A stretch of DNA of 64,000 nucleotides from a virus, in IMG/VR virus record IMGVR_UViG_3300042516_002090, positions 2,578 through 66,577 of that record; one strand, 5' to 3'. Position 1 is the first letter of the stretch; each line of letters begins with the position of its first letter. The notes under the pieces are model-generated. The model was not told the DNA's origin. It searched no databases and saw nothing but the letters and a program-made list of their open reading frames with translations. A program made the translations under genes and the position numbers. Below, piece by piece: positions 1 through 40,518 of this stretch.

Positions 1-97
1 AATTAAAACTCGAAATTAAGGCAATCGCCAATGGTGACTTTTCAAGCGAATTAAAGGCAATTAGCGAATAAATCATAAACAAATAAATCCAGTACAA

Positions 98-469
98 ATG
101 AAAATTACATTCACAAACGAAGAATCACAGCAACATTTCTTGTCTGCAATGTGCAACGGCCTTGGTTACATTTCCGATTACGGCCTTCAATTAAGTTACA
201 AAGAAGCAGAGTACAAATCTGCAAAAAAGAAGCTAGAATCCCCATGTTGGGAGGACGTACTGCTTCAGATTCTTATCGACGGCAATTCCCTATCCCTTTA
301 TGATGGTAATGACGACGTGACGCACACCATTACAATTCAAGACGTATACAATCGCTTGCCGGAAACACCAATGCGACATCTAATGGACATGGTAAATCAG
401 CAAGATGATGCAGTTACTGCGGATGTAATACTTCAAACAATATTCCTTGAGGAAGTAATCTACGGCTAA
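98..469 (+). CDS. hypothetical early protein
   Basis: 123-aa ORF with A-rich leader, on the early-gene strand. Confidence 0.8.
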   Translation: MKITFTNEESQQHFLSAMCNGLGYISDYGLQLSYKEAEYKSAKKKLESPCWEDVLLQILIDGNSLSLYDGNDDVTHTITIQDVYNRLPETPMRHLMDMVNQQDDAVTADVILQTIFLEEVIYG

Positions 470-522
470 GGTTAACTGACGATGGCTTTATTAGCCGAAA
501 CTGCCTTCGGGCAGTCTTAACC
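470..522 (+). ncRNA. type I hammerhead ribozyme
   Basis: GGUUAA-CUGACGA-U-[GGCU uuauu AGCC]-GAAA-[CUGCC uucg GGCAG]-UC-UUAACC: all three stems pair, full core present, predicted GUC cleavage after 516. Confidence 0.92.
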
Positions 523-538
523 ACAAAAAACAATTCAA

Positions 539-706
539 ATGAAAAAGGCAGTTATTTTTTTGGTAGTGTTCATTGCATCACTATTTCTAGCATCAGAATT
601 CGACAAGGAAGTACTACTTATCGAGTGTGTACAAGAAACGCAAGGTAGCGACGCGGACTGCGAAGAATGCTACGTTAAAGTATATGGTAAACCTTCAAAC
701 GATTAA
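539..706 (+). CDS. small secreted or membrane protein (55 aa, not in ORF track)
   Basis: Hand translation MKKAVIFLVVFIASLFLASEFDKEVLLIEC...DCEECYVKVYGKPSND*; signal-peptide-like N-terminus. Confidence 0.7.
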   Translation: MKKAVIFLVVFIASLFLASEFDKEVLLIECVQETQGSDADCEECYVKVYGKPSND

Positions 707-710
707 ACAC

Positions 711-830
711 ATGAAAGAAGAAACACTTATCGCATTGCTCAATTATATCGAGTACTGGACTTCCGATGATCATGAAAGAAGTCAGATGAAGCAAGCCCTA
801 ATCGATTTCATAAACGAAGTACATCAATAA
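711..830 (+). CDS. small hypothetical protein (39 aa)
   Basis: ATG 4 nt after upstream stop; in frame with track ORF 627..830. Confidence 0.55.
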   Translation: MKEETLIALLNYIEYWTSDDHERSQMKQALIDFINEVHQ

Positions 831-851
831 ACAATTAATACAATAAACAAG

Positions 852-1364
852 ATGACAACTCATCAACAAAACATCATCGACTCTTTAGTCGCAGAATTCA
901 ACAGAATCAACACACCAATCCCTAATGGATTCGCTCGAATCGGCGAGGCACTCGAACATTGTGACGAATGGAATTGCCTTGTAGCTGGAGTAAGAGCATG
1001 CAACGCAAGGTTTGAATACCTACGCGAGGAAATGATTGAAACCGATTTCTTTCGACTTAAGGAAGAATGTAGGCTTGCCGGGCTTGATGGTATTCGCATC
1101 ACGATGGGCGACGATTATATCGCGCTCGATGTAGATGGTGATTGGATTCACACGGATGATAGAATTACAATCTACTACAGATTCGAAAGGAAGCACCATA
1201 GCAGTAGTACAAACAAATCGATTGATGAATTCAAACAAATCCGAATTCATTCATATCAGGCCTCATCTACTTACGCGGATGACTTCGCGTCCATAGACAG
1301 CTTGTTTCAACACGGCACATTCTTCCGCAATTGGACGAAACTCATAGAAAAGTCACGCAAATAA
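852..1364 (+). CDS. hypothetical protein
   Basis: 170-aa ORF, leader ACAATAAACAAG-ATG. Confidence 0.8.
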   Translation: MTTHQQNIIDSLVAEFNRINTPIPNGFARIGEALEHCDEWNCLVAGVRACNARFEYLREEMIETDFFRLKEECRLAGLDGIRITMGDDYIALDVDGDWIHTDDRITIYYRFERKHHSSSTNKSIDEFKQIRIHSYQASSTYADDFASIDSLFQHGTFFRNWTKLIEKSRK

Positions 1365-1389
1365 TTAAACTCAATAAACAATAAACAAG

Positions 1390-1656
1390 ATGTTACATAA
1401 CGAACACCTATCGAAAGCAGACGAGTCATACGAAATTCGTCACGACAACAATGGCAATGCTATTCACGTCTACATTAAAGATGGCGAAGCCATCATCTTC
1501 CCTACACTTCATGACTTTGTAATGCGTGTATACTACGGACAAGACGTTGAACGTTTCTACCTAGAAGAGGATAGCCTATCCGCTATGTACGACGAGTCAG
1601 CATATGACTACTACACGCTGAAAGGCCAATACTATGTCGAATCCATCAACAATTAA
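1390..1656 (+). CDS. hypothetical protein
   Basis: 88-aa ORF, same leader ACAATAAACAAG-ATG. Confidence 0.8.
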   Translation: MLHNEHLSKADESYEIRHDNNGNAIHVYIKDGEAIIFPTLHDFVMRVYYGQDVERFYLEEDSLSAMYDESAYDYYTLKGQYYVESINN

Positions 1657-1667
1657 ACACAACTCAG

Positions 1668-1901
1668 ATGAAAATTCTATTCTTCGCGACAATGCTTGTC
1701 GCACATCAGCACTCAGCTGAAATGAAATTCCGTGAAATGCAAGACGATGGATTAATCGTGTACGAAGGTGACGACATCGATACTGGCAATGCCATGTTTA
1801 CCATCATGCTTCCTGATACGACTATTAACTATGCGTACAAAGGTGAAGTAATGGAATACATCAGCACCGGGACATTCGAGTATAATGACTTCTTAAAATA
1901 A
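1668..1901 (+). CDS. hypothetical protein
   Basis: 77-aa ORF in tightly packed operon. Confidence 0.7.
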   Translation: MKILFFATMLVAHQHSAEMKFREMQDDGLIVYEGDDIDTGNAMFTIMLPDTTINYAYKGEVMEYISTGTFEYNDFLK

Positions 1902-1906
1902 ACACC

Positions 1907-2104
1907 ATGAACATAATGAACAGCGACGAAAAATTCAAAATCTACGACCGCGTAATGGCAGTCATAGTAATCATTGCAGTAGTGGCAATGCTACTTACAT
2001 CATGCACAACATCACGTCACTCAGGCTATCAAGACCATCTGAGAAGCACCCACCACACTAATTGGGTAAAGCAAGACAACGGTGGCTGTGGATGGCATAA
2101 TTAA
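1907..2104 (+). CDS. small putative lipoprotein
   Basis: Hydrophobic stretch ending LLTS-C (lipobox-like). Confidence 0.6.
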   Translation: MNIMNSDEKFKIYDRVMAVIVIIAVVAMLLTSCTTSRHSGYQDHLRSTHHTNWVKQDNGGCGWHN

Positions 2105-2123
2105 CCCTTAAAACTAAAACGAA

Positions 2124-2462
2124 ATGGGATTCTTTTCATTCAAAACTCAAGACACCAATCGGAGTATACCAAGCCGATACAGCTGTCGCAAAACATTCAA
2201 AGTGTTCATGCACGATAACGCTGGCAATGTTTACCCTGAGACCAACTACGAAGGCTACGGCACGTTTGGAGGCATGGACTACTATGAACTGCTTGCAAAA
2301 ATGAACGGCCTTGCGGATCGATATGACGCGATTCGAGCATACTGCGACAAGACTGATGGATTACTTTATCCAAACCTAACCGAGTCAGAGGACTGGCAAT
2401 GGCGCAACGAACGGACAAGCGAATGTCCTAACCAAGGCTACTTCTACGACTCAGCAAATTAA
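2124..2462 (+). CDS. phage hypothetical protein
   Basis: 112 aa, MGFFSF...YEGYGTFGGMDYYELLA...PNQG motif pattern. Confidence 0.8.
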   Translation: MGFFSFKTQDTNRSIPSRYSCRKTFKVFMHDNAGNVYPETNYEGYGTFGGMDYYELLAKMNGLADRYDAIRAYCDKTDGLLYPNLTESEDWQWRNERTSECPNQGYFYDSAN

Positions 2463-2475
2463 CAACTCTTAACAA

Positions 2476-2509
2476 GTGGGTGCAGTATTTAAACTTATAT
2501 TGCACCCAC
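2476..2509 (+). other. intergenic 13-bp hairpin
   Basis: GTGGGTGCAGTAT-ttaaactt-ATATTGCACCCAC, no long U tract. Confidence 0.6.
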
Positions 2510-2529
2510 ATTTAAACACTAACAGCGTC

Positions 2530-2724
2530 ATGAAGAAAGAAACAATTACCAATCACAAGCCTATTTCAGAAGATGTCGCCGACTCAATTAAGGCATTGTT
2601 GCCCGAATCGCTTTGGGTTACGGACTTCGCAAAGGCAGTCGCGCACATACTTGCTGACGAGTATGGCGAACACAACTACGAAACGTTTATCGACGAATTA
2701 AAAAAACAGCTAAACAATAAATAA
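2530..2724 (+). CDS. hypothetical protein
   Basis: ATG 2530 in frame with track ORF, downstream of the hairpin. Confidence 0.7.
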   Translation: MKKETITNHKPISEDVADSIKALLPESLWVTDFAKAVAHILADEYGEHNYETFIDELKKQLNNK

Positions 2725-2738
2725 AAACAAAAACAGCT

Positions 2739-3233
2739 ATGGCAAACATGTGCTACAATTATGTTACCTGTACTGGGAGTGCAGAGAGCATTGCAAAACT
2801 GAAACAAACCTTACTAGATGGCCGTGAATACATGCGGACGCATCTTCAAGCAACAGACCTAGGAGTCGACCTACAAGAGGGCGCATTCTTCGAAATTGAA
2901 ATAGGCGACGAGACTGATTGCAGTCTGCAATTCAGCTACGAAACAAAGTGGGCGCCAAATCTGCTCGACCTAGCAGAAGTGTGCAAGATGCACAACGTAT
3001 CAGCAGTAAACGAGTACACCGAGTGTGGATTCGAAATCTACGGCAAGGCCACAATTACACCTGATGGATTGGTCGACGACGACGAAGTACCGGGTGACTT
3101 CCTTGAACTGATTGAGTATATCGAGGACGAGGGATGCTACGAATACAATGGCATTCAGCATGAGACGATAGGCGACGCAATTGAAGAACACTATGAAGAA
3201 TGGAAGAAATCACAACCAAAAACTACAAACTAA
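2739..3233 (+). CDS. DUF1281/YubB ferredoxin-like domain protein
   Basis: MANMCYN start and F-x-Y-E-T-K-W-A-P motif resemble the family. Confidence 0.6.
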   Translation: MANMCYNYVTCTGSAESIAKLKQTLLDGREYMRTHLQATDLGVDLQEGAFFEIEIGDETDCSLQFSYETKWAPNLLDLAEVCKMHNVSAVNEYTECGFEIYGKATITPDGLVDDDEVPGDFLELIEYIEDEGCYEYNGIQHETIGDAIEEHYEEWKKSQPKTTN

Positions 3234-14290: not shown

Positions 14291-17200
14291 TTATGATGAG
14301 AATGTACAAGTTGCACCTGCTGTTCCTGCTGTTCCTGTTATTCCTGTTGGAGTTGCAGCCGTAGATGCTGCTACCGCAGTAGAATCAACAACTGTTACAG
14401 AGTTAGCCGCCATATTTATTACTGTTATTTTTCCTCCGTTGCCACCTGAACCACCTTGTCCACCAAAGTTACCAGCACCTCTTCCATCTCCTCCAGTTCC
14501 TCCAGTTCCTCCATCTGCTGATACAAATGTAACGCCACTAGTTCCGCTGATGCTTCCTGCAGCTAAGTAAACAAATCCACCGCCTCCACCGCCTGCTCCC
14601 CCACTACCTGTTCCATTGAATGTGGTGTGAGATCCTCCATTACCTCCTCTGCCACCTCTTGCCGAAATAGCTGCTGCATTTGTTGAAGGACCAACTACTA
14701 TGTTTCTAGCAAATATAACGGTGGTTCCTCCACCTCCACCTCCAGCTCCACCTCCATTTCCAGCAACGGTTACATTAGCACCACTTCCCCCTCCACCGCC
14801 TCCGTGACCTCCTGCAAAGTATATATAAGTAGTAGAAGTAAAGCTGATGTTTGCTGTATTAGAAACATCTTGTCTAGTCCTATTAAAAAATGTACCTGAT
14901 CCTGCTGGATTTGTTATAAATGTTTGTGGGGTATATGTTCCAAAGTTGGTTACACTTATACCCGTAGCTTGTCCAGTAGCTCCTGCACCTCCCGTTGCCC
15001 CGGATGCTGAATTTCCACCTACACCTCCTATTCCCCCTACTCCCCCGATAAGACCTTCTGTACTTAATAAAACAGGTGGACTAGATCCTGCACTTCCATT
15101 TCCACTTGACGTTCCACCATTCCCTCCAGATCCTCCTTTATGCTTTCCATTTGTAGCACTTCCCCCTATAAACCATCCATAAACCGTAGACCCAAATCCA
15201 CCTCGACCACCAGTACCAGTAAGATTAGAAGCTCCACCTGTGCTATTAGCATTATTTGCTCCTCCATATCCATTGTTGTGTATAGCAGAAGACCCAGCAT
15301 TAGTAAGATCTAAAGTCCCACTCACGAATATTCTATAACCATTTAAGTATAAAATACCTCCTGCATCAATAGTTAAATCATTATAGTACATATCATTGGC
15401 AAGGGTTACCGTGCCGCCTGATCCACTTGACCCATTAATTGTTACACTCCCATCTGTGCCATCCCCAAAATAACCTGTAAAAGATAATGATTGTTGCACA
15501 GCATTTGTTACAAAAGCCGTTGTGGCTATCTGAGTTGTATTAGTTCCTGATGCAGCAGTTGGTGCTGTTGGTGTTCCTGTAAATGCAGGAGAATTAATAT
15601 CAGCCGGGGTGTATCCAAGTATGGTGGATATAGACGCGGTCTTCCATTGACCAGGAGAAACCGAGTTGTCGTACCACAAGGTGTCCTTGAGGCTTGGAGT
15701 CTTTGCTTGTACGTTATGCAACTCGTCTAACTCATATCCGTTCTGTACACGGACATACATCCTTCCCGAACCACCTGGATTAGCCGTGGTTACAATCCCT
15801 AAGTAAACCAAATGGTTAGGGGCATATGGCTTGGTAAACGTCTTTGAACCCGCAGTTGGGCCTAGATATACAGGCATTCCATCCGCCCATCCATCAACGG
15901 GTTTCAAAGTGCTAAGCCCTGTAATCAGTCCCTGCATGATGATTATACCCTTTTGGTTGGCGCCAATAGAGTCTGAGTAAACAAGACCAACAGTCTGAGC
16001 GGACGTGCCGTCGGTTGTGTTGTTGGCTAGTTTAACAGTCATGCGATCCCCTGTACCGCTAAAGGCATAAACAGCCTGGCCCTTGGTGATCGTCACCGAG
16101 TCGTCGTTGGTAACGTATGAGAACAAGCTGTTAGGAGACGTTCCAATAGCCTGAAACGCATTGGTAGTCGAGTTGTATACACAGAGCATCTCAGCCCCGG
16201 CCCAAATATCTCCTCCAATGACAGGCCCGTCGTTGTTTCTATAAATAGATATGGCGCCAAAGCCATTTATATTCAAAGTACTAGACGTCGTGTTGCCGTT
16301 TGTAAAACGAATCAAGTAAGCGTCTCCGTCCGCATAAGTGGTTGCCCCTGTAATAGTAGACGTATACGTGTCCGTTCCCGATGCGGTTCCGTGCAGTATT
16401 CCTCCCCCGCCTGTGGACGCTATGGTGAAGCTTGGGTATGTACCTGTCACGCTGATTCCTGTACCCGCAGTCAAAGAAACCGTTTGGTCGGGAAGCGTGT
16501 TCTGTAAGGTAAAACTTGGATAGGTCCCTGTAACCGCAAGTCCTGTGCCTGTGGTTCCAAGAGAAACCGTTTGGTCAGGAGCCGTGTTGGTAACCGTGAA
16601 GGTTCCCGACGTGGTTATAGGCCCGGCAGGAGAGACCGAAATCCCTGTCCCGCCGTCCACATCAATCGACGTAACGGTTCCTGTCCCCGCAGTGCCGCTA
16701 GAGGCCGAGGTGATTCGCCCCTGCTGGTCAACGGTTATGTTCGCATTGGTATAGGCCCCTGGGGTTACAGCCGTGTCTGCAAGGTCAATGGTTCCGCTTG
16801 AGGTTATAGTCCCCCCGTCAAGCCCTACCCCTGCCGTTATCGAGGTGACGGTCCCAAGGCTTCCCCCAACAGAGGTAACGTCCACGCATAGCGAAGTGCC
16901 GTCGGGGAAGCTAGAAGGTCCGTCAAGAAGTGTGGCATTAAACTGAGCGTAAACACCAGGGCCGCCGTCAGAGTAGTTTGATAGCTGATAAATTCCGAAT
17001 ACAGTTGGATCTGTCTTGCTGAAGATAAATATCCATGAGCCGTCTTGAATGATGGGCCAGAATCCTGTGAAGTCTTGATTGTTCGCAGTAGTGTAACTAA
17101 CTCGAATAGCCCCTCCGCCGTCGTAATATATGGTCCCTGAGTCTGTTCCGTTTCCGTAAGTATACTGAATAGAACACTCAGGCTCTGTGTTACCACACTC

Positions 17201-17509
17201 GCAACACCCCTTGAATACAGACGTCACAAGCAGTCTATAAATTTCAATAGTTCTTGCCTGGATTTCAGCTACTGAATTATTAGAGTTGATTGGAACAAAG
17301 GCATTGCCACCAACCTCGTTTATAGTGTAAATGGGAAACTCAAACGATTTGTTTCCATCCTGCGTTATCGAAATCGTATCATACGAGTATGAAATGTACG
17401 TAGGAACCTGAGGCATGATTTGACTCATGCCAATTACATAGTTAGTCCCGTTTAAAAAAGATACGATGTCGTTTCCCTCGATCTGTATCTTTGTAATTGT
17501 TGAAATCAT
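14291..17509 (-). CDS. tail fibre / receptor-binding protein
   Basis: GTVTSI, ITVDQQGRIT and FTGTPTAPT..NTTQIATTAFV fibre motifs; Gly-rich C-terminal domain. Confidence 0.85.
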   Translation of the reverse strand: MISTITKIQIEGNDIVSFLNGTNYVIGMSQIMPQVPTYISYSYDTISITQDGNKSFEFPIYTINEVGGNAFVPINSNNSVAEIQARTIEIYRLLVTSVFKGCCECGNTEPECSIQYTYGNGTDSGTIYYDGGGAIRVSYTTANNQDFTGFWPIIQDGSWIFIFSKTDPTVFGIYQLSNYSDGGPGVYAQFNATLLDGPSSFPDGTSLCVDVTSVGGSLGTVTSITAGVGLDGGTITSSGTIDLADTAVTPGAYTNANITVDQQGRITSASSGTAGTGTVTSIDVDGGTGISVSPAGPITTSGTFTVTNTAPDQTVSLGTTGTGLAVTGTYPSFTLQNTLPDQTVSLTAGTGISVTGTYPSFTIASTGGGGILHGTASGTDTYTSTITGATTYADGDAYLIRFTNGNTTSSTLNINGFGAISIYRNNDGPVIGGDIWAGAEMLCVYNSTTNAFQAIGTSPNSLFSYVTNDDSVTITKGQAVYAFSGTGDRMTVKLANNTTDGTSAQTVGLVYSDSIGANQKGIIIMQGLITGLSTLKPVDGWADGMPVYLGPTAGSKTFTKPYAPNHLVYLGIVTTANPGGSGRMYVRVQNGYELDELHNVQAKTPSLKDTLWYDNSVSPGQWKTASISTILGYTPADINSPAFTGTPTAPTAASGTNTTQIATTAFVTNAVQQSLSFTGYFGDGTDGSVTINGSSGSGGTVTLANDMYYNDLTIDAGGILYLNGYRIFVSGTLDLTNAGSSAIHNNGYGGANNANSTGGASNLTGTGGRGGFGSTVYGWFIGGSATNGKHKGGSGGNGGTSSGNGSAGSSPPVLLSTEGLIGGVGGIGGVGGNSASGATGGAGATGQATGISVTNFGTYTPQTFITNPAGSGTFFNRTRQDVSNTANISFTSTTYIYFAGGHGGGGGGSGANVTVAGNGGGAGGGGGGTTVIFARNIVVGPSTNAAAISARGGRGGNGGSHTTFNGTGSGGAGGGGGGFVYLAAGSISGTSGVTFVSADGGTGGTGGDGRGAGNFGGQGGSGGNGGKITVINMAANSVTVVDSTAVAASTAATPTGITGTAGTAGATCTFSS

Positions 17510-18663: not shown

Positions 18664-21600
18664 TTATTTTGTTTCGATGCCGTATTTTTTTCGTAACTCG
18701 GTTACTATTTGCTCTCTTTTTTTGTAAACCGCCTCTTGCATACCCTTCTCGCTCATGCCCTGCACGTCTAGATCGTACATCTTTTGCCAAAACTCATAAC
18801 GAACATTTTCGATTGCGTCCTGGCGATAGCTACTCAACAACTCAATCTTTTCTGCCTGTGAAGCAGCGTCTATACTTGACTTATTGCTATTTATTAGTTG
18901 AGCGGTTTCCTTGTTGATTATAAGACTAAGTGACTGCTTGAAGTCGTCGTCCATCTCAAAAGGTTCCCTCTCCGAGCCAACATTTACCTCTATCCAGTCC
19001 TTGGCATCCCATCTAGAGTAAGTCTTAGGGAACCACTTCTCCTTTGTTAGGTTATAATACGGGCTGTTTTCAACGTGGCTTGTTCCGTCCTTCCATACAC
19101 TTTCTGGAAGAAGAGCCTTGAGTACCGGGTTCGATGGCTGCACGTACACAGGCTCGCCGAAGTGGTCGTACATCAGACCTCCGTTGGTGTCCATGAATAC
19201 ATCAGTAAAGAAAATATCCGACACTATGTTATCAACCGCCCCGCTTCGTTTCTCCTTTTGAATACCCTTCCACGCCTCGTAGTCCTTCTTAATGTTTTCA
19301 TACAGGGTTGGGGAGAACGATGTTTCGATACCGTCTAAGAAAAATATCTCCAACGCTTCAGCCGCCTTTGCCTCGCCATATCCACCGTATAGTTTTTCTA
19401 TCGCTCTCTTTGGCGCGGACATCTCACTACCTGTTAGCTGGGCGCCGACAAGAGCAAGTATCTTGTTAAAGCCGACGGTTGTTTTATCCCCTTCACCAAA
19501 CCTTATATCGTTTGATACCTCGCCAAGGATTTTACCTATTGCCCCAAACACAGGGCCTGTCAATGACAGAGGAATATTTTTGCCTGCTATGGTTACACTG
19601 TTTGGCTCCGCACCCTCAGCCTCCATCTCAGCTCTTTGCTTGCTGTCCTCGGCCGATCCATAGAATTTGATCCACGCATTAGGGTCGAGTTTCACTTCAT
19701 CGTCATCCTCGTCGCCAAAGTCAAACAATGACGCGATAAGACCACCCCAAATCATTGTAGCCACTACGTTTTTAAACGCTCTGGATATCTTCTCCTCGTT
19801 AGTTAGAGGTACGGTGGTTGCCTTTCCGTCTATGTATCTAACCTTAACCCCAGTAATCTTTTTACCCGGTATGGCCGCTATTACAGCAGGAACAACAGGT
19901 ATGGACTTGTAGAAGTATTCTGCCATTACCGTGTTTAATCGGATGAAGCCTAGCACCGTACTCAGGGTAAGTCTTCCAAACGCAACAACCGGGTTGTCCG
20001 TATCTCGAAATGGAGTTGCCTTGGATATGAGGTTGAACACAGCTGCTCCAGCAAGTGTTTCCGGTTTTTGAAGAAGGAGGGACTTCCTGGCCTGGTGAGC
20101 CATCTCGTCGATAACTTCTTTAGGCATTGCGTTATGAACCTTGTCGCGAAGCTTTCTCTTTGCCCAACCCTTCGGTAACGACTCTCCGTTGGCAATCCTT
20201 TCTGCCGCCTCTTGAGCAACCTCGCTTTTGAAATTGTTTATCTGATCAGGACCTGCCTGTATAAGCTCCTTAAGTTGTTGATTCCAAACCGCTGACCCCT
20301 TCTTCATCTTGACACCTGACTTCTTATTCACCATGTCGAGGTAATTTTCAGCCTCGATGTAGGTGTAAATGTCTTGCAAGGCGCCGCCCATAAGTATATC
20401 CTGGGCGCTCATGAGTACCATACTTATCTCCGAAAGGGCAGGCAAGAACTTGCGCTTTCTATAACCGGAACTCATTAATTGACTAAAGGACTTTAAAAAG
20501 GCTTCTGTTGCGTAACGCGCTCTCCTGCCTCCCTTCTTGTTTATGAAGTCGCTTAGTATCTGAGCGTACTCCTTCTTTGTAACACGATAGATTGCGCCGT
20601 GAGCTTTTTCCTCAGGTCTTTCAAGCATGGTTGTTTCACCAAACCTAGACTGTGGTTTTTCCCACTTCGCGGCAACGGTTTCCCATCCCATTGTGGCGCC
20701 CTCGGCCCTCATCATTTTAGCAAACTTAATCGCCCTGGCCATTCTAGCCGGGTTGTAAAGAGCCGTGAACGCACCGTGCTGAATGCTCGATACTACAGCA
20801 CCCACACCGGATGCCATGATCGCCGTCTTAAATATATCCGAAAGCGCGTTCGTATAGAACTGCTCGGTAAGCCAGCGGCCAACAAGTGCGGCAGTGGTCT
20901 CGTCGTACTCACTAAGGATGTCGTTGATGTACCTGTTAATCTCTTGGTACAACTCCTCTCCGGGCTGGAGTGCTTGCAGCCTATCAAAGTATCCCTGCAA
21001 CTTCACAATGTCGCTTTGAGATATCCCCTTATAGCCAAGCGTGTCCAAAAGAGCGGCCTCAAACTGAGAATCAGAAACCTGTCCCTTAGAAATAGCCCTG
21101 ATAACTCCCTTCTTCACACTCTCGGCGTCCTTAATTCCCTGCATGATCGAGTCTATGCTCTGCTTTTTGGCCTTGATTTTTTCATCAACCTTCTCCGCAA
21201 TCAAAGGCTCGATTTCAGTCTGTAGCTGTGAGGCGTATGCCGGGTCTATTCCAAGGTTGTTGACCAGCGCCTCTGCAAGGGTTTGTATTTTCGCGTTTTG
21301 ATTTGTGATGTGTTCGGCGGCTATACGAGCAATCTCCTTGTCCATATCCTCCTTGCTAAGCGATGCGGCTGCGGCTCTTTTTTCTACACCACCAATTGGC
21401 ATCTCAAGCAGGTCAGATACTAGCGCGTCAATCTCGTTCTTGATTGCCATCTTGGTCGCAGCGTCTAACTTCTCGTTAGCGTCTACGTTTGCCTTGGCAA
21501 TATTCATGGCCTTGGTCACCATCGACTCAACCTGGGCCTTGTTGTTTAGGATTGTCTTGAGCCTGTCCTTTGCCTTCACCTTCTCGCCACGGCTCTTGGC

Positions 21601-22848
21601 CATGACGTAATCAGGGTCGTTCTGTAGAATCGTGTCGGACAACATCTTCAGGGCCTTGTCCTTGACGTTCCTTGTGTCAGCAATACCCTCGAACGCCTTG
21701 GCCAAACGCTTGGTTGCGGTTACCTCTTTGTTCTTCTTAATGTCGGTATCGAAAGAGGACATGTTGTCGTCAACGATTTGATCTATCGCTGTACGTTCAC
21801 CGGGCAGTACGTCCTTGATTTGATTCCACACCTTGTTCTTAATCATCTTGGCCGAGTACGCACCCTCCTCGATGTATGACATAATAAGGTCCCTGATGTG
21901 TGGAGTTATCTCAGCTATAATTGAATTTGACAAGGCAAGTGGGCCTGGGGTCCTTTTCTTCGCCAGAATACCCTTGATTGCGTTTACACTAGCGGTTCTT
22001 TGAGCCTTAAACTCCGGCTTGACCGTTACAACGGTGGCCGTCTTCTTAACCTTTGGCATTGCAGCCGCAACAATAGCGATTGCCTCGGCCTGGTTGAGTT
22101 TTGCTATCTCACGCAGTTGTGTGATAGCCTCTCCAATAGTCATTCCGCCTGACGTTACCTGATTGAGGAAATTCCGCTTTGAACTATCCTCGTCCATTAT
22201 TCGGTTTGCTAACTGCTCTGGAGTTGACGCCGCCGCAAGTGCAGCTACTGTTTGACCGGCCGTAGTTCCTGATGTACCCTTAGTATTATATATCTTCTTG
22301 GCCATCTTATAATCGCCCTTCACGTAGAAGTAGTTAGCAGCCTTAGCCATAACCACTAAGTACTCATACTTTAACCCAGAGTTTTCAATCCATTCGTTCT
22401 CGGTTGTGTTTCCGTATGCACTTAACAAGTCATTAAATATATCCGTTTCTCCAGCTTCATATTGGGCTTTAAGTTGCTCGAACTTTTCGTTTGCTAAAAC
22501 CTCCATGGCCCTTTGATCAATGGCAATATACTCTTCAGTACCTATGCCTCGTTGCTCTGCAAGCCTTTCTCCATAAGCCCTCTGCCTTACGTCGCCGTAA
22601 GCCTCGCCTAGTCTTGACTTCATGAAGTCAGACATTGCGCTCTTCTTTTCTTTAGGTTGTTTCTTGGTGGTCTTAGGAGCCTCGGTAAACGGATTATCAC
22701 CCTTGAGGGCGTTAACGTTCAATTTGTCGTTGTTGATAAGCTCCTGCAGCGCCCCGTTATAGAGCATCTCCATGTACTGCTCAAAGGTTTTTTCCTCCGC
22801 AGCAGTAGCGCCCGGCATCTTTATAGTTACCTTACAAGGTTTCGCCAT
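18664..22848 (-). CDS. large virion ejection (internal) protein
   Basis: 1394 aa, Ala/Lys-rich, single Cys, last of ejection cluster. Confidence 0.7.
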   Translation of the reverse strand: MAKPCKVTIKMPGATAAEEKTFEQYMEMLYNGALQELINNDKLNVNALKGDNPFTEAPKTTKKQPKEKKSAMSDFMKSRLGEAYGDVRQRAYGERLAEQRGIGTEEYIAIDQRAMEVLANEKFEQLKAQYEAGETDIFNDLLSAYGNTTENEWIENSGLKYEYLVVMAKAANYFYVKGDYKMAKKIYNTKGTSGTTAGQTVAALAAASTPEQLANRIMDEDSSKRNFLNQVTSGGMTIGEAITQLREIAKLNQAEAIAIVAAAMPKVKKTATVVTVKPEFKAQRTASVNAIKGILAKKRTPGPLALSNSIIAEITPHIRDLIMSYIEEGAYSAKMIKNKVWNQIKDVLPGERTAIDQIVDDNMSSFDTDIKKNKEVTATKRLAKAFEGIADTRNVKDKALKMLSDTILQNDPDYVMAKSRGEKVKAKDRLKTILNNKAQVESMVTKAMNIAKANVDANEKLDAATKMAIKNEIDALVSDLLEMPIGGVEKRAAAASLSKEDMDKEIARIAAEHITNQNAKIQTLAEALVNNLGIDPAYASQLQTEIEPLIAEKVDEKIKAKKQSIDSIMQGIKDAESVKKGVIRAISKGQVSDSQFEAALLDTLGYKGISQSDIVKLQGYFDRLQALQPGEELYQEINRYINDILSEYDETTAALVGRWLTEQFYTNALSDIFKTAIMASGVGAVVSSIQHGAFTALYNPARMARAIKFAKMMRAEGATMGWETVAAKWEKPQSRFGETTMLERPEEKAHGAIYRVTKKEYAQILSDFINKKGGRRARYATEAFLKSFSQLMSSGYRKRKFLPALSEISMVLMSAQDILMGGALQDIYTYIEAENYLDMVNKKSGVKMKKGSAVWNQQLKELIQAGPDQINNFKSEVAQEAAERIANGESLPKGWAKRKLRDKVHNAMPKEVIDEMAHQARKSLLLQKPETLAGAAVFNLISKATPFRDTDNPVVAFGRLTLSTVLGFIRLNTVMAEYFYKSIPVVPAVIAAIPGKKITGVKVRYIDGKATTVPLTNEEKISRAFKNVVATMIWGGLIASLFDFGDEDDDEVKLDPNAWIKFYGSAEDSKQRAEMEAEGAEPNSVTIAGKNIPLSLTGPVFGAIGKILGEVSNDIRFGEGDKTTVGFNKILALVGAQLTGSEMSAPKRAIEKLYGGYGEAKAAEALEIFFLDGIETSFSPTLYENIKKDYEAWKGIQKEKRSGAVDNIVSDIFFTDVFMDTNGGLMYDHFGEPVYVQPSNPVLKALLPESVWKDGTSHVENSPYYNLTKEKWFPKTYSRWDAKDWIEVNVGSEREPFEMDDDFKQSLSLIINKETAQLINSNKSSIDAASQAEKIELLSSYRQDAIENVRYEFWQKMYDLDVQGMSEKGMQEAVYKKREQIVTELRKKYGIETK

Positions 22849-23345: not shown

Positions 23346-26300
23346 TTACGGGCAACCGTCGGTTTTATCTGTTATCACACCTGCTTCTTGCAGCTGCTTG
23401 TTAATGTCGCTAATATTTTTGTAAATATACTTCAACTTTGGGTCGAGATCCAAAATTTCATCAATGGCATCACGAGCTGCTGCACGTTCGGCACGGTCCC
23501 CGTCCTTGATCTTATAGTAATTTTCAACAATACTACTGATGTTTGCCGCCAACCCGGAGGTAGGCGCTGCCTTTGGAGCCTTTGGGGCCTTTGGAGCCGG
23601 CTTCTTAGGTAGGCCCCTAGGTGTAACACCAAAGTCCTCCTTAATGAACTCATCGAATTGATTCTTATACTTCGGATTAAGTTCATTGTACCAGTCCTGG
23701 CTACCAACAAAGTCATTAACAGCTATCTGGGCGTCCGTGCCTGATGCAATCGCCTCGTCAATGGCATCCATTGCGTCCTCCATCAACCTCTGAATCTCGT
23801 CATTGCTTCGGTTAATCATGGACATCTGACCTTCCTGGGCGACCTGTTTAGGTTTATTAAACTCCGCCTCACGCTTGGTTACCTCTGCTGCTTTGATTTT
23901 TGCTGATGGCATTGCGCCCATAATGGCCTTAGCCGCCTCAGGTTTTCCTCGCAGGCCAAACTGTGTAGGGTTCACGTCCTTACCTGTACCCATCGGCTTT
24001 GACTCGTAGAATATTGAACGAGCGTCAAGCATTTCATTTAGATACTTGACTGACTTAATTGTACCGCTAATAACGTAGTTATAAGACTTATGGTGGTACT
24101 CGTCGGCCTCCTCTGTCTTTACAACCTTCAGGGACTCAGGATCGTACTCTACAAATCCTACAACGTCTCCGTACTCGGCGTTGGCAAACGCTGGTTCGTT
24201 AGTGTAGTCAAGAATAGTCTGATCCATTTTATAGGTAGCACCTCCGCTAATGGAAGGAATACCAAACTTCAGGCTGTTACCTACATTGAATACTTTTTTG
24301 AAGTAGCTTGATCTTACGTCATAGGTAGAATCAAAAAGTTCGTCATAAAGCTCTTGAACCGAATTGAATCTTATACCCTTTTTATAAATGGCGTCTATCT
24401 TGGCCAGGGCCGTGTTCTTTCGGGCAGCTATCCCCTTTGAAGACTTGTTAAACTCTGCTGGAGTTATTTTTCCATCCTTCAGCGACTTCTTTATTTTGTT
24501 TTCTTCTTTCTCTATATCGGCTAACTGTTTTCTTATAACCACCGTCCCCGGTCTGTCCTCTAAGAGTTTTTCATAAAATGGAAAGTCCTTTTGAAACGCT
24601 GTGTTGAGGGGATTGTTTATCGCGTCCAACAGTTCGTTTATGAACTTCTTCGCCTCGGCCTTCTGCTGTGGAGTTGACTTGCTACTTGCCAGTGTGTCTT
24701 GGTGCGGCTTCAGTGCCTTATTCAACAAGTCAGCGTAGTGTGCAAGCATCATCTTGTTACCCAGAACTCCAGTAGATGCCTGAGCGCCTATAGCCGCAAG
24801 CTGACCCTTCTTTAAAGCATTCAATAGCTTGTTTGCCCCATCCTCGTCGGTGGTCGCCCACACAGAGCCATTTAGTATCTCACTTATTTTACCTGAGATT
24901 AGGTTGGCCAGCTCCTTTTGGTTCGCCCATATCGGGTAAAATCCGCCACCTCTGCCATAAAAAGGTACTCCTGTAGGAGACACAACATCCCCCACAACCT
25001 GCTTGTCACCTAAGAAACCAACAGCTGTTTTTCCGTCGTACTCCTTAATGTCGGCGTATTGGATCAGGGAGCTATCAAATGGACGTTCTACAGTGGTATC
25101 TTTTACCACGCCTCTGTTGGTTTTGTCGCGGTTAAGAATAGTGAACTGACCACCATTATTACCCAGGATAATGTTTTCGTATCGCTTCACGTTTTCCTTA
25201 CCAACAACATCACCTATCGTCCCGCCATTATTCATGGCAAACGAAAGCTTCTGAGCAAACTCTCTGAACTTTTTAGCAGACGCGTTCTTGTCCACAGGGT
25301 TATAGCCAAACATTCTGGCTATCTTGTTCATTATGTCAACGAGTAGGTCCTTGAGGCTTTTGTTAAGCTCAGTAACATTAACGTCCCCGGTAACAATTTT
25401 AGCAAGCGTCTCTACGACAATCTCGTCCTCAATGGTTTCGCTACCCTTTAGTTGGTATCCTCCCGTGTCCTTCACCTCGTTTATGATATTAGCAATAGCG
25501 CCGTTTACCTGCGCCTCGCCCTTAATCCCGTCTACAATAGCCTGATAAAGCTCAGGGTTTGTGTTGCGGATGATATTTATCACCGGGTGAATACCCTCGT
25601 GAAACGCGATAACCCTACCGCTTGAACTCTTGAGTCGGTCGCGGTTAATGTAGATTACACCGTAGTCTTTGCTGGCAAGGAATATACCATCGATACTACC
25701 CTCCACCTGACGCTGTTGACCGAGCCTCTGTGCCTCGTTGTCGTCAATAATTTTTACATCAATGCCAGACTCCTTGACAAACTCTTGAATTCTTTCAGCG
25801 GCGTTCTCACCATCGGTCTCGAACATCTTAGCAATACGTGCCTTGCCTGTGCGCTTTGGCGCCTCTTTTTTAGGAGTCTTAGCTTCGCTTTCAAGAACAG
25901 ACTTAACGTCCTTTGCAAAAGGAGTTGAGCCATAATCTTTTTTAAAATCATCAAAAGTAAATTCTTTTAAATCATAAGCTAAATGTTCGGCCCAGTTAAT
26001 ACCTTTATTAACAAGCAAAGAACTTAGCTCGCTGCTAAATCCATATTCATCTTGCAGATACTTTATTATTTTTTTTGGATCACGATTCCAAATAGGCATA
26101 TCCAAAACCTCAACCGCACTAGCTGCCTTTTTTACATATTCAAATGCTTTTTCGTAGTCCTCTTTAGACGCCGGGATAGTATCATATTCATATGCTTCTT
26201 TTAGATCCTTAACGGATTTTATTGCTGCTTCTTTTGCTTCCTCTAATGAACTAAATGTTTGAACGTTTTCATATCGTGTATCTAAATTAAATTTATTTCG

Positions 26301-29300
26301 CACACTTGTCTTTAAAACGTATTCAGGATTTCCGTCATCGTCCTTGCCTTCTTTCTCTATAGTAACTTTTGTTTTATCGAAGTCGTTTGATTCGGTAAAC
26401 AAAACGTCACCGTTTTCATCTACAGTTTCATTACCCCACTCAACATCCTCTGATTTCTTAGGATCAACCTTAGATGGCATTTTGTAATTAGTAGCCTTCT
26501 GTTCTTGAACTTCAACACTTGTGCTAGGGGTTGACAATCCATTCTTAATACCTTCTTTTAATAACTTAATATTTCCATTTATATATTCAATTCTAAACTC
26601 TTGTGATCTGAATGCATCTTTGTTGCTTTTCTTAATTGATTTAAGTTTATCCTTAGCCTCGGCAAGAAGTTTTTCATTCAGCTTCAGCTCTTCTTCATAA
26701 TCAACAACAGGGTCTGAATTTTGAGCAATCGCCCACCATTCCTTATCTCTATCCTTTAATTTTTTTACATCTCCTCCATGATGATATTTATACAATGCAT
26801 CAGGATTGGTTGTAAGACCGAGTTCTTTTGCAATAGAATCGTTTCTTTTTCTCCATTCCTCTAAAACTGATGACCTCGGTACGTTAAATCCCCACTCTTG
26901 TGGATGTGACATTTGAATCAACAAATACAAATCCACAGCCGACGCCTCTCCAATGTTGAATTGATTGTATCTAAGAAGCTGAGGATACTCTTGGGTTAGA
27001 TCAGTTTCAGATTTGTAAAATTCTGGAGAAGACAATGTCCCCTTTACACCTGCGGGTATAAAGGTATTCCTATTAGATTTTTGAACAGTTTTAGGTGCTT
27101 GTTTTGACACCGGCTGTTTGCCTGTTTTCTTTTCAGCCTTTGTTTCAGGTTCTTTTTTGGTCTCCGTCTTTGTTTCTACTGGTTCTACTTTATCCTTAGA
27201 TTTTCTTTTCTTTTTGTATTTTCCAGCAACGAACAAATAGTTAGGTTCTTTTTCATTGGGAACCTTAACAATTTCACCTGTGTTGATATTTTGTATTTCA
27301 GATATTAATGTCGGAGTAACGCTTGTAGAATATGAACTTAATACCTCATACTCCTGACCGTCTTTTATTGATTTTATCAAGTTCCCACTTCCTAAGTCAC
27401 TTAAAGAAATAGGTGTTTCACTTGTGATCTCTCTTAATGTTGCACCAAAATCAAGAAATGTATGTGTGCTTTCTAGCTGTCCATTATCGTTTATAAAAAC
27501 ACGTATACCTCTCTGATCTTCACCAAACAAAAAATACGCTTCCGTTACATCTTCTCTGTCATTGTATCCAGGGTCATCACTAAGATCAAACGGTTCTCCT
27601 ACTCTTGCTATTTTCATAGGCCCAGACATATGAGTACCCATAATCACAGTAGCACCTACTATTTTTCCAATGTTTTCTTTTGTGAATTTAGCAGGGAATA
27701 CCTTTTTGCTGTTTATAGTTGGCTTTGTGGCTGGAGCCTCTGTTTCAGGTTCTTTTTTGGTCTTAGGCTCAGGCTTTGTTTCAGGAGCCTTTTTCCCCTC
27801 AGTAAGCTCGGTTCGGCGGAAATTCGCTTCTCCTGCATATGCGGGTTCTCCTTCTGGCTTTAAAATCACCAATGAGTTATTGCCCACGTAAGATTCTGGC
27901 CATTCTTCTGAGTCAATGTTTCCAGGGAGTCTTTCTATTACAATATTTTCAGTTTCATCCGGGCCAAGGACTACGCCTTCGATATAACTTACCCAACCCA
28001 TTCTTTCATCAATAGCACGAACCACTATGTCGCCAACTTTGAATTCAGAGAGCGGCTTTCCGTTTTTATTAACTTCTTCTATCCTATCACTTACAAATTT
28101 CTCGTTTTCTTCGGTTTCAAATAACCTAGACTCCCGTGGTTTGCGCTCCTCAGTCTTAGTTTCAACTGCCGCAGGCTCGGCCTCCTCCTCGCCCTCAAAT
28201 ATCTTGGCGATGCGCTTTTTACGAGTAGTCTTGGGTTCGGTTTTGACTTCAGGCTTTGTCTCTGGAGCTTTTTCTTTTTTAGCCGGAGCTGCTTCTTCTA
28301 CTTGAGGGGCGGCTTGTGTTTTGGAGGCTTCGAGGGCGGCTAGTTTTGCGTCGTATTCAGCATTGATTTTATCTTTAGATTTTTGAAAACCACTTCTACT
28401 TACAATTTCAAAAAACAAATTAGGAGATTCTTCTGTGTTGCTCCATAATCCATTACTTTCATCTAATACTTGAGGTCTTCCGGTATTTTCATTTACTCTA
28501 AAAATTCTATTATTTGGATCACCAATTATTTTAAACTCCCCGTCTTCAACTGTTGGTTTTCTATCATAAACTACTCTATTTTTTAACTCTTCTTGTCTTT
28601 CCTTTTCTACTTCTTCCCTTTGTGCTTGAAGTACTCCACCTGCTTCAGGCGTTTCTGCGCTTGGGACTTCGATAGGTTTGGCTGCGACAGGTTCTTGCCC
28701 GACTCCGACTTGACCTGATACCCTTGTTTCGTTTTCTTTATCATATTTTAGATTGTTAAGATTTTCAAGCAATAACTTGGAGTTGCCCTGCTGGCCCTCT
28801 CTTATCTGTAACGTCTTGCCGTCCTCGGTGGTGATGTTTACCGATACTATCTTCCCGTTCTTCTCAGCGTAATTATTAAGAGTCGCATTCTTCCCGGCGT
28901 AGTTAATCGTCGCACCCTTCTCAAGCGTTGGCGTAATGAGAGTGTTTTGATTCTCGATGTTCATTTCACCGACAACACCCTCGTCGGTCTCGATTCCCAT
29001 TTCGCGAATCTTATCGACTGCACCCTCTCCCTTCTCAACAATAACACTCTTACCGTTGTTGTATTCTATCTCGTAGTCACCATCCTCGTTAATAAAGAAG
29101 TTGGCGTACTGTCCACCAATCACAACACGCTGAGGTGTTGTTGACGTGCCTACTGACTTGGCGCTGATGCCGTTTTCCCCAAGCGACAAGATTTCTTGAC
29201 GCTCGTTTTTCAATCTTTCAATCTGAGCATTGATAATAGGGTCCTTCAGGTCTGTATCCTCAAGGGTTCGTATCTGCTGGGTAATGCCAAAAGCCCTGGC

Positions 29301-39766: not shown

Positions 39767-40518
39767 ACTTTACTAGGCATTTGAGTCTGAATGTTCCACT
39801 GGTTCTCGTTACCAATACCAACATACGTCTTAATCATATCGATCAAGTGGTCTACGCAGCTCTCAGGATACTCAAACTCAACACTCAAACTCGGAGATCC
39901 CACAGTTGCTACAGTACTATTAGTATGTACGCTACCCGGTGGTAAATATACGGGAATTCCGTTATCAATGTCGTAGTCGAAGTAAGGAATATTTGGAGTT
40001 CTTATGTAAGTAAACGTGATACGCGGAAGATATGGGTAAATGAAGTACTTGTCGTTTCGTGTGACAAGGATTGGGTCGTTTTCTTCCGGGTTGTCTACAG
40101 GGCTTATGAGCGAACTTCTCATCTTTGCATCAAACTGATGCTGACTAACAAACTCAACGCTTCTGTAGTTAGTCTCAAGCCCGCAGTTCACGTTTAAAAG
40201 TTCAAGGTAACTAGATGATGCCTCGTACCAAATGTCGCTTGGAATGTCGGCATACCCACCCTTCTTTGGGTCTCCTGAAAACACAGGAGTGAAATTCAGA
40301 GCAGGATACTGAGGGCTTCCCAAGGTCTTGATAAATGGCTGAAGGTCGCTAGTAATCTCCCGGTTCTTTTCAAAAAGGTCAACCAAGCGGTTTAAGTATC
40401 GTTGGTTAACCGTCTTGATACCCTTGTTGAAGGTTTCGGGAGTTATGTACCCTCCGCGCAAGTCCTTACCTGCGCGGAAGAGCAACTCGTCATATATTTC
40501 ACCTAGATTGGTTATCAT
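39763..40518 (-). CDS. tail ring/adaptor protein
   Basis: KD.RGGYITPETFN and TYIRTP motifs. Confidence 0.65.
   Translation of the reverse strand: MITNLGEIYDELLFRAGKDLRGGYITPETFNKGIKTVNQRYLNRLVDLFEKNREITSDLQPFIKTLGSPQYPALNFTPVFSGDPKKGGYADIPSDIWYEASSSYLELLNVNCGLETNYRSVEFVSQHQFDAKMRSSLISPVDNPEENDPILVTRNDKYFIYPYLPRITFTYIRTPNIPYFDYDIDNGIPVYLPPGSVHTNSTVATVGSPSLSVEFEYPESCVDHLIDMIKTYVGIGNENQWNIQTQMPSKV

Follow-up and report, generated by a model that had tools for sequence, protein, structure and literature searches.

A type I hammerhead RNA with predicted self-cleavage between two small phage genes and the viral family to which it belongs

On the + strand of the window, which is the whole 64,000-nt stretch of phage DNA analysed here, positions 470-522 are confirmed by comparative sequence analysis as a hammerhead RNA of type I, which is predicted to cleave itself. 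It is quite probably an active member of a uniform family of phage hammerheads, and its cleavage would separate the cistron of a 123-aa protein from that of a 55-aa protein. An earlier sequence-only reading of this DNA had described such a ribozyme at 470-522 (+), and every part that it listed is present in its place, including the start right after the upstream stop codon (the TAA of the upstream ORF occupies 467-469 and stem I begins at 470). The assignment to type I is borne out by homologues with covarying stems, while the position of the cleavage site and the length of the 22-nt leader behind it both follow directly from the sequence. By itself, this single element adds little. It opens, though, onto a large and uniform family, seen in at least 260 viral loci, which lies below the thresholds of Rfam 15.

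The element and its genomic surroundings

The virus record is 66,577 bp long with a G+C content of 44%, and the window covers its bases 2578-66577. The genome has a podophage-like layout, in which small co-directional ORFs occupy the + strand between the left end and ~14.6 kb and a long structural block lies on the - strand. Matches to PHROG profiles include the portal, the large terminase, a primase-helicase, a Cas4-like exonuclease and a PAPS reductase, and the terminase is only ~24% identical to the terminases of Maribacter, Flavobacterium and Cellulophaga phages. Three long ORFs of the structural block, 23346-31823 (-), 18664-22845 (-) and 40518-43394 (-), encode proteins of 2825, 1393 and 958 aa, none of which has a PHROG match at E 0.001. 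An SD-like 4-mer precedes 2 of 34 long ORFs, and the leaders contain 44% A. The DNA of this phage recurs in lake-water metagenomes, and its host is likely to be a freshwater member of the Bacteroidota. Searches of window 1-3000 by megablast and blastn found no close DNA relatives among deposited phages. In two of the metagenome runs, X4 and X7, variant contigs differ from the window at 1085-1283, where 197 bases in the early gene 852-1364 are swapped for 191 others.

The element is flanked by two small genes. Homologues of the upstream 123-aa protein were found in an uncultured 462-kb phage (45% identity) and in the loci L145 and L146 (55-59%), and the related-locus search of viral contigs returned no relatives of this protein. 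The downstream ORF at 539 had been described as a gene of 55 aa that lacks annotation, and it proves to be real and conserved, with four homologues of 69-85% identity that share three invariant Cys residues. A search of metagenome contigs with the 55-aa alignment gave 320 pattern matches, of which 0 were confirmed. The features of the region are as follows.

98..469, + strand: upstream gene of 123 aa, function unassigned; its stop codon abuts the ribozyme
469..523, + strand: whole element, that is the 53-nt hammerhead with the family-conserved flanking A469 and A523
470..475, + strand: 5' strand of stem I, GGUUAA, pairing with 517-522
476..482, + strand: core C3 U4 G5 A6 C7 G8 A9 (CUGACGA), read from the sequence
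483, + strand: extra U between A9 and G10.1, read from the sequence
484..496, + strand: stem II, GGCU/AGCC, 4 bp (484-487/493-496), with G10.1-C11.1 and the loop UUAUU at 488-492
497..499, + strand: core G12 A13 A14, read from the sequence
500..515, + strand: stem III, A15.1-U16.1 plus CUGCC/GGCAG (500-505/510-515), with the UUCG loop at 506-509
516..517, + strand: predicted cleavage site, C516 (C17) / U517 (N1.1), by hammerhead numbering applied to the sequence
517..538, + strand: 22-nt leader of the downstream gene after predicted cleavage, consisting of the 6 nt of the stem I 3' strand and 16 A-rich nt
539..706, + strand: downstream gene of 55 aa with a hydrophobic N-terminus and three invariant Cys; homologues in 7 viral loci

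These parts follow one another in the order of a hammerhead, namely stem I, core, stem II, GAA, stem III, N17 and stem I again. The conserved core is complete, with CUGACGA at 476-482, GAA at 497-499, the pair A500-U515 and a C, not G, as N17 at 516; the cleavage-site triplet is GUC and the catalytic positions are all intact. The one departure from a strict consensus without inserted core bases is U483, which stands between A9 and G10.1. The topology is that of type I, as stems II and III are closed by loops (488-492 and 506-509) and stem I is open, formed by the two ends of the element. When the 53 nt were folded in isolation, the minimum-energy structure was the three-way junction (-17.3 kcal/mol, z -3.17), and none of 200 shuffles folded as well. 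The six-pair duplex of stem I has an energy of about -4 kcal/mol, and four of its pairs are A-U. No intrinsic terminator was found at 470-522 on the + strand.

Hammerheads require a tertiary contact between stem I and stem or loop II for fast cleavage at cellular Mg2+. In this element, whose six-pair stem I has neither a loop nor a bulge, the candidates for such a contact are the invariant flanking As, the G-C pair at the end of stem I and the loop U-N-A-N-U of stem II. A mutual-information search for covariation between loop II and the flanks, run on the listed family matches, gave no clear pair, and the neighbours of stem I and lineage effects dominated the signal.

Chance level and a uniform family of minimal phage hammerheads

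A descriptor of our own, which held the core with 0 or 1 inserted base and required no fewer than 4 pairs in stem I and no fewer than 3 in each of stems II and III, was run on both strands of the 66,577-bp genome and matched at 470-522 only. Some lax match occurred in 38 of 300 dinucleotide-preserving shuffles of the genome (48 matches in total); none of these shuffles reached stems of 6, 4 and 6 pairs, and 1 reached the observed total of 16 pairs. The chance of such a motif, taken by itself, is thus about 1 in 300 per genome, which is appreciable, and not negligible, when many windows are scanned. In addition, the stemless core pattern showed no enrichment in the genome, with 14 matches against 18.15 expected. 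The motif alone is therefore weaker than it looks, and the case rests on comparative evidence from relatives.

A check against the Rfam hammerhead models had been suggested by the sequence-only reading; Rfam 15 gave 0 matches in the window at gathering score. In E-value mode over 400-600, the only model to appear was RAGATH-1-hammerhead (RF03152), with 13.4 bits against a gathering score of 56.3 and an E-value of 8.4. The hammerhead models that appeared in the outputs were Hammerhead_3 (RF00008), Hammerhead_II (RF02276) and RAGATH-1-hammerhead (RF03152). Other Rfam hammerhead models bear the names Hammerhead_1, HH9 and HH10. Likewise, no Rfam hammerhead was detected at gathering score in 20 loci that carry family members, nor in L410, L144 and L142, and the sub-threshold matches to canonical family copies came from Hammerhead_3 and RAGATH-1 only. 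Since the same library does detect the type II hammerhead of phage CRP-7, the miss reflects a gap in the models and not a failure of the search, and annotation pipelines based on Rfam will miss the A-flanked minimal type I family.

The first search pattern for relatives, CTGACGATGG..CCGAAAC..GUC, was taken from the window and held the core, the first two pairs of stem II and GAAAC...GUC. It was found in at least 125 viral loci. Among the 117 distinct matches listed, stems I, II and III are uninterrupted in 96, while 13 fail by an interrupted stem III alone and 8 are without stem I. A covariance model, R1, was built from six 53-nt copies of the same geometry from other viral contigs, with the window excluded. 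On the window it gave 470-522 a score of 67.2 bits (E 2.7e-18) and aligned it with standard base pairs at all 16 paired positions, whereas the next match reached 13.6 bits. The score of 470-522 is partly circular because ~20 of the 53 positions were fixed by the window-derived search pattern. On the whole 66.6-kb genome R1 gave one match. Over the window and 99 of the at least 125 listed loci, it gave 126 matches, some of which had not been selected by the pattern.

The R1 matches among the listed loci yielded a covariation alignment of 120 distinct rows. In this alignment, 94.5% of the cells are paired, compared with 68.9% in shuffles and 30-41% with slid partners, a fraction that is favoured by the alignment having been fitted to the structure of the model. 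Changes on both sides were seen in 14 of the 16 pairs, and all three stems covary; the covariation score was 0.595 against 0.144 for shuffled alignments and was reached by 0 of 500 shuffles. By stem, pairs 3 and 4 of stem II covary, and 5 of the 6 pairs of stem III change on both sides.

In two broader scans, which differed in the U after A9, the only parts prescribed were the core, GG..CC and the loop U-N-A-N-U. The form with the U was found in at least 131 loci and the form without it in at least 129. Complete stems I and III are present in 225 of the 237 distinct matches listed from these scans. Stem I has exactly 6 bp in 224 of these 225 complete listed matches and starts with G, and an A at position -1 and an A at position +1 of stem I each occur in 224 of the 225. 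At N17, 206 of the same matches have C and 19 have A, and 78 distinct stem I hexamers occur among the matches listed. The length of stem I and its flanking As, which the search patterns had left free, are almost invariant. Stem II of the family has four pairs and the loop U-N-A-N-U, of which GG..CC and the loop were set by the broader search patterns. N7 varies (U, C, A, G), and the rest of the core is fixed, as its fixed letters were part of the search patterns. The window element has the commonest stem I among the matches listed, and its loop UUAUU occurs in 16 other listed members. It shows every feature of the family, namely an A, a 6-bp stem I starting with G, CUGANGA with or without a U, GGNN-UNANU-NNCC, GAAAC...GU-H, the second strand of stem I, and an A, with a start codon 12-26 nt behind. 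In the literature searched, including the available part of the supplement of PMC3088659, we found no description of this particular A-flanked minimal type I phage family. The regular features of the family and the gap in Rfam are useful by-products of this analysis.

According to the alternative of a chance look-alike, intergenic hairpins would stand beside CUGANGA and GAAA by accident, and the one shuffled genome in 300 that reached 16 pairs and the lack of an Rfam match speak in its favour. This is hardly credible, because the comparative data already contradict it: the element belongs to a family with features that were not asked for, its stems covary, and a variant of the same locus has the canonical core.

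The inserted U, placement in phage genomes and predicted processing

The sequence-only reading noted the extra U before stem II. Close variants of the locus and other family members do without it, in agreement with a tolerated insertion. Among 26 distinct R1 matches not selected by the first pattern, the U is present in 16 and absent in 7, with a G in the remaining 3, and the U-insert and canonical forms often occur on one contig. Lake-metagenome contigs over the same locus leave base 483 out, at all of the depth in X3 (2 contigs) and in 1 contig of X7, so that these near-identical variants have the canonical core. According to a review, the CChMVd (+) hammerhead carries an additional A here, the change of which to U raised the trans-cleaving rate 3-4 fold (PMC3705267). 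Hammerheads of Penelope-like elements carry a conserved base between positions 9 and 10.1 (PMC4209133). Judged from these sequences, the U after A9 is a known and tolerated kind of variation that is optional in the family.

In longer contexts (71-401 nt), the predicted minimum-energy structure is more stable than the hammerhead fold by 1.9-3.0 kcal/mol, and the hammerhead fold makes up ~1% of the ensemble, in a model that ignores tertiary and core interactions. Two predicted helices could compete with the hammerhead fold. The first pairs 464-469, the stop-codon region GGCUAA, with 491-496, the 3' strand of stem II, and the second pairs 501-507, the 5' strand of stem III, with 544-550 (AAGGCAG) within the 55-aa gene. 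The upstream competitor in the window ranks 13th among 224 listed family members and is stronger than in 211 of them. As a conserved feature of the family it was rejected, since the mean duplex energy was -3.04 kcal/mol against -2.97 kcal/mol (sd 0.10) for permuted partners, and it is a local peculiarity of the window element. A ribosome terminating at 467-469 would also cover stem I.

These observations bear on a reading in which the element is a hammerhead by descent and now mainly a structured spacer, whose two hairpins, stem II and the UUCG-capped stem III, would shield the upstream message or make ribosomes pause, with weak cleavage or none, the low activity being attributed to the inserted U and the competing helices. 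The extra base in the core and competitor helices stronger than those in most listed family members fit such a role. It is improbable nonetheless, as all catalytic positions are intact with a GUC cleavage triplet, and a mere hairpin would not need the conserved core. Moreover, the inserted U is the commoner state (16 of the 26 matches not selected by pattern) and occurs in at least 131 loci, which is not expected of a disabling change, and a U at this place was reported to be favourable (PMC3705267).

Relatives of the 55-aa protein are encoded in seven viral loci, which also contain counterparts of further early genes of this phage (45-83% identity), arranged in another order. As these loci were fetched via the protein, they provide a route to the family that is independent of the ribozyme pattern. 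Hammerheads of the same type occur in three of these loci; their N7 is U, the extra U is present or absent, and their stem I, GGUAAA/UUUACC, differs from that of the window element on both sides. The copies of these relatives occupy other intergenic slots, and one precedes the homologue of the window gene 852-1364. In none of the seven loci does a hammerhead stand directly before the 55-aa homologue, and two of them have no hammerhead within 1.5 kb, so the element is not tied to the 55-aa gene. More distant phages, with terminases 27-31% identical, have 1 to 5 copies clustered on one strand, and in two complete 67-kb records a copy lies ~3.1 kb from the left end, as in this phage. A tblastn comparison of all ORFs of the phage with the flanks of the first set of at least 125 hammerhead loci gave no match, and those copies lie in unrelated gene contexts. 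A pattern scan of genome contigs gave 7 loci, 2 of which are convincing by R1 (74.8 and 59.2 bits) and 5 of which have poor stems.

In runs X4 and X7, a 3- to 10-fold increase in depth within window 451-527 is confined to the ribozyme, and loose ends lie at 468 and 501. Further contigs there match just the 5' two-thirds of the ribozyme, and one of them continues as an L097-type stem III. The same ribozyme is present in several co-occurring phages of those metagenomes. Within one contig, the ribozyme and a leader of 20-40 nt behind it are repeated together before different small genes, as at L014:1495-1547 and 1763-1815, at L042:1180-1231, 1495-1549 and 2853-2904, at G003 77273-80150 (5 copies) and at G005 15321-17407 (4 copies). 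These repeated units look as if a cassette had been copied.

Several further ribozymes and other structured elements were noted in viral sequences. L015:760-827 (+) is a pistol ribozyme (RF02679, 61.8 bits, gathering score 34.5), located ~670 nt upstream of the family hammerhead L015:1495-1556 on the same strand, so that two different self-cleaving ribozymes stand in one phage gene block. In the uncultured Pelagivirus S35C6 (L410, AP013542.1), the segment 1497-1556 (+) is an unannotated family member that lacks the extra U and has GUA at the cleavage site (R1 41.2 bits). It separates two small ORFs, and a MarR-type regulator and an integrase are encoded downstream of it. Roseobacter phage CRP-7 (L409, MK613349.1) was considered as a cultured carrier of the family and rejected, because its match, an unannotated hammerhead at 570-633 (+) between gp01 and gp02, is of type II (RF02276, 50.1 bits, gathering score 37). 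This RNA overlaps the annotated start of gp02 at 619, which may be miscalled for that reason, and the cultured phage CRP-7 might be suitable for laboratory work on what phage hammerheads do. Finally, the contig L003 has at 136-262 a long G+C-rich hairpin of ~125 nt, made of repeated GGGGUUGCG-like units, near its hammerheads; several miRNA models of plants and animals match this strong inverted repeat below threshold, on either strand.

A second, larger type I subclass with a CUGACGA+U core occurs in the loci L001-L125 (for example L006:1495-1551, L032:1495-1555 and L049:1495-1556). Its 3' tail is complementary to loop II and the two change together (for example, the tail is GCCA where the loop has UGGC, and ACCAC where it has GUGGU), from which a loop II-tail pseudoknot is predicted. 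Many members then have a conserved stretch such as CUUCCAAAUCA before the SD, and none of this subclass was detected by Rfam at gathering score.

Another possibility is that the ribozyme and its leader form a mobile cassette, which moves or reshuffles small genes, for instance by cleavage and re-ligation into RNA circles wherever a gene has a copy on either side, and does not serve mRNA processing as such. Copies at different intergenic slots in related phages with shuffled early genes, the many contigs that have 2-5 copies 230-900 nt apart among the matches listed, and the joint repetition of ribozyme and leader within a contig (e.g., L014 and L042) would agree with it. This genome, by contrast, has a single copy and hence no fragment flanked by two sites, and a search by Perreault et al. 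for RNA products that had been spliced or made circular was negative (PMC3088659). We consider this role very improbable.

Regarding the genes around the ribozyme, 163 of 220 family members listed have an ATG 12-26 nt behind stem I whose frame runs uninterrupted through the rest of the flank, compared with 17.75 in shuffled flanks. The spacing peaks at +16 to +21 among the listed members, and the ATG of the window (539) lies at +16. On the upstream side, an open frame of at least 40 codons ends at most 40 nt before the element in 105 of 119 cases (median 0; 124 distinct R1 matches listed), a generous count since the ribozyme itself contains stop triplets. A ribozyme that serves the gene behind it would fit this family-wide spacing, which may also be a mere reflection of compact phage genomes.

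From gene orientation and position, we infer transcription of the left arm on the + strand as one polycistron, its early timing and self-cleavage. The best-supported reading is that predicted cleavage after C516 would give the 55-aa gene a 22-nt leader with a 5'-OH. During transcription of the left-arm genes on the + strand, the first stems to form would be II and III, and stem I would close once 517-522 have been made, whereupon the RNA would cut itself between C516 and U517. Because of the type I topology, almost the whole ribozyme would remain on the upstream fragment, and the message of the 123-aa gene would end in a 2',3'-cyclic phosphate one base after the stable UUCG hairpin. The downstream fragment would retain six bases of stem I, and the six-pair helix, with its four A-U pairs, could fall apart, leaving the 55-aa gene with an A-rich leader of 22 nt and a 5'-OH at its beginning. 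Overall, the two cistrons would be separated without any protein, with the consequence that the stability and translation of each would no longer depend on the other. Likewise, we infer cleavage in vivo, co-transcription of the two genes and an effect on stability or translation. This processing matches the proposal made for prophage hammerheads (PMC3088659; PMC6765202).

The same cleavage chemistry and placement would fit equally well with an active ribozyme that lowers expression, in which case the 5'-OH end would be degraded by a host 5' exonuclease and a lower level would be set for the genes behind it. In Bacillus, the product of the glmS ribozyme is degraded by RNase J1. For a decay signal, however, it would be odd that an RBS or an A-rich leader and a start codon are kept intact near the new 5' end, and lowered expression seems unlikely compared with a separation of the cistrons.

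Beyond processing as such, it can be speculated that the element is a natural insulator cassette. The fixed A-flanked 6-bp stem I and the start distance would have been selected for a 5'-OH leader of 18-32 nt, the new 5' end would aid ribosome loading, the cassette would move between slots of early operons, and the optional U would tune the cleavage rate. This remains a doubtful extension, to which we give some weight but not much. If true, it would matter most in hosts without Shine-Dalgarno pairing, as the leaders of this phage suggest. The role of bacterial and phage hammerheads is still described as unsettled (PMC6765202), and the bare A-flanked 6-bp stem I, the optional U and the start-codon spacing provide testable hypotheses on how neighbouring phage genes may be uncoupled by RNA self-cleavage.

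Comparison with known hammerheads

That hammerheads had been reported in phage sequences before, as the sequence-only reading stated, agrees with Perreault et al. (2011, PMC3088659). According to that study, prophage hammerheads flank genes, cleave in vitro and in E. coli, and were proposed to process long phage transcripts, a proposal that is also made in a review (PMC6765202). Type I topology has been reported for bacteria and phages (PMC7761336), and all three hammerhead topologies in phages are already in print (PMC3088659; PMC7761336). The window element resembles these prophage and phage hammerheads in its class, in its location in gaps between co-directional genes, in the frequent presence of several copies per region and in the proposed role. 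Unlike it, the examples tested in PMC3088659 are mostly of type II or have pseudoknots, whereas the window element is a minimal type I hammerhead with a bare 6-bp stem I.

As for the inserted base, the hammerheads of CChMVd (+) and of Penelope-like elements also have one extra nucleotide between A9 and G10.1 and keep G10.1-C11.1 (PMC3705267; PMC4209133). They differ in belonging to a plant viroid (type III) and to eukaryotic retroelements, respectively, while the window element belongs to a phage and its extra base is a U that is optional within one family.

A pseudoknot hammerhead structure is in print (PMC11300833), and the pseudoknot type I hammerheads of the same viral collection share with the window element the CUGACGA+U core, the type I layout and the intercistronic placement. 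This subclass differs by a G+C-rich stem I of 5 bp, a stem II of 5-8 bp, a larger loop and a complementary 3' tail, and the pairing between loop II and a 3' tail is absent from the window element. RAGATH-1 (RF03152), the only Rfam model that aligned at all, is similar in its type I layout, its short stem II and GAAAC...GUC. Its 5' hairpin has no counterpart in the window element, which at 13.4 bits against 56.3 is not a member.

Synthetic insulators of the RiboJ type place a hammerhead before the RBS, where it cuts off the upstream RNA; they derive from an engineered satellite-RNA hammerhead with an added hairpin. The likeness to the window element would be one of function, as cleavage just upstream of the start would leave a fixed short leader with a 5'-OH whatever lies upstream. 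RiboJ has another topology and an added hairpin and is engineered, so the parallel is a functional analogy and not a membership.
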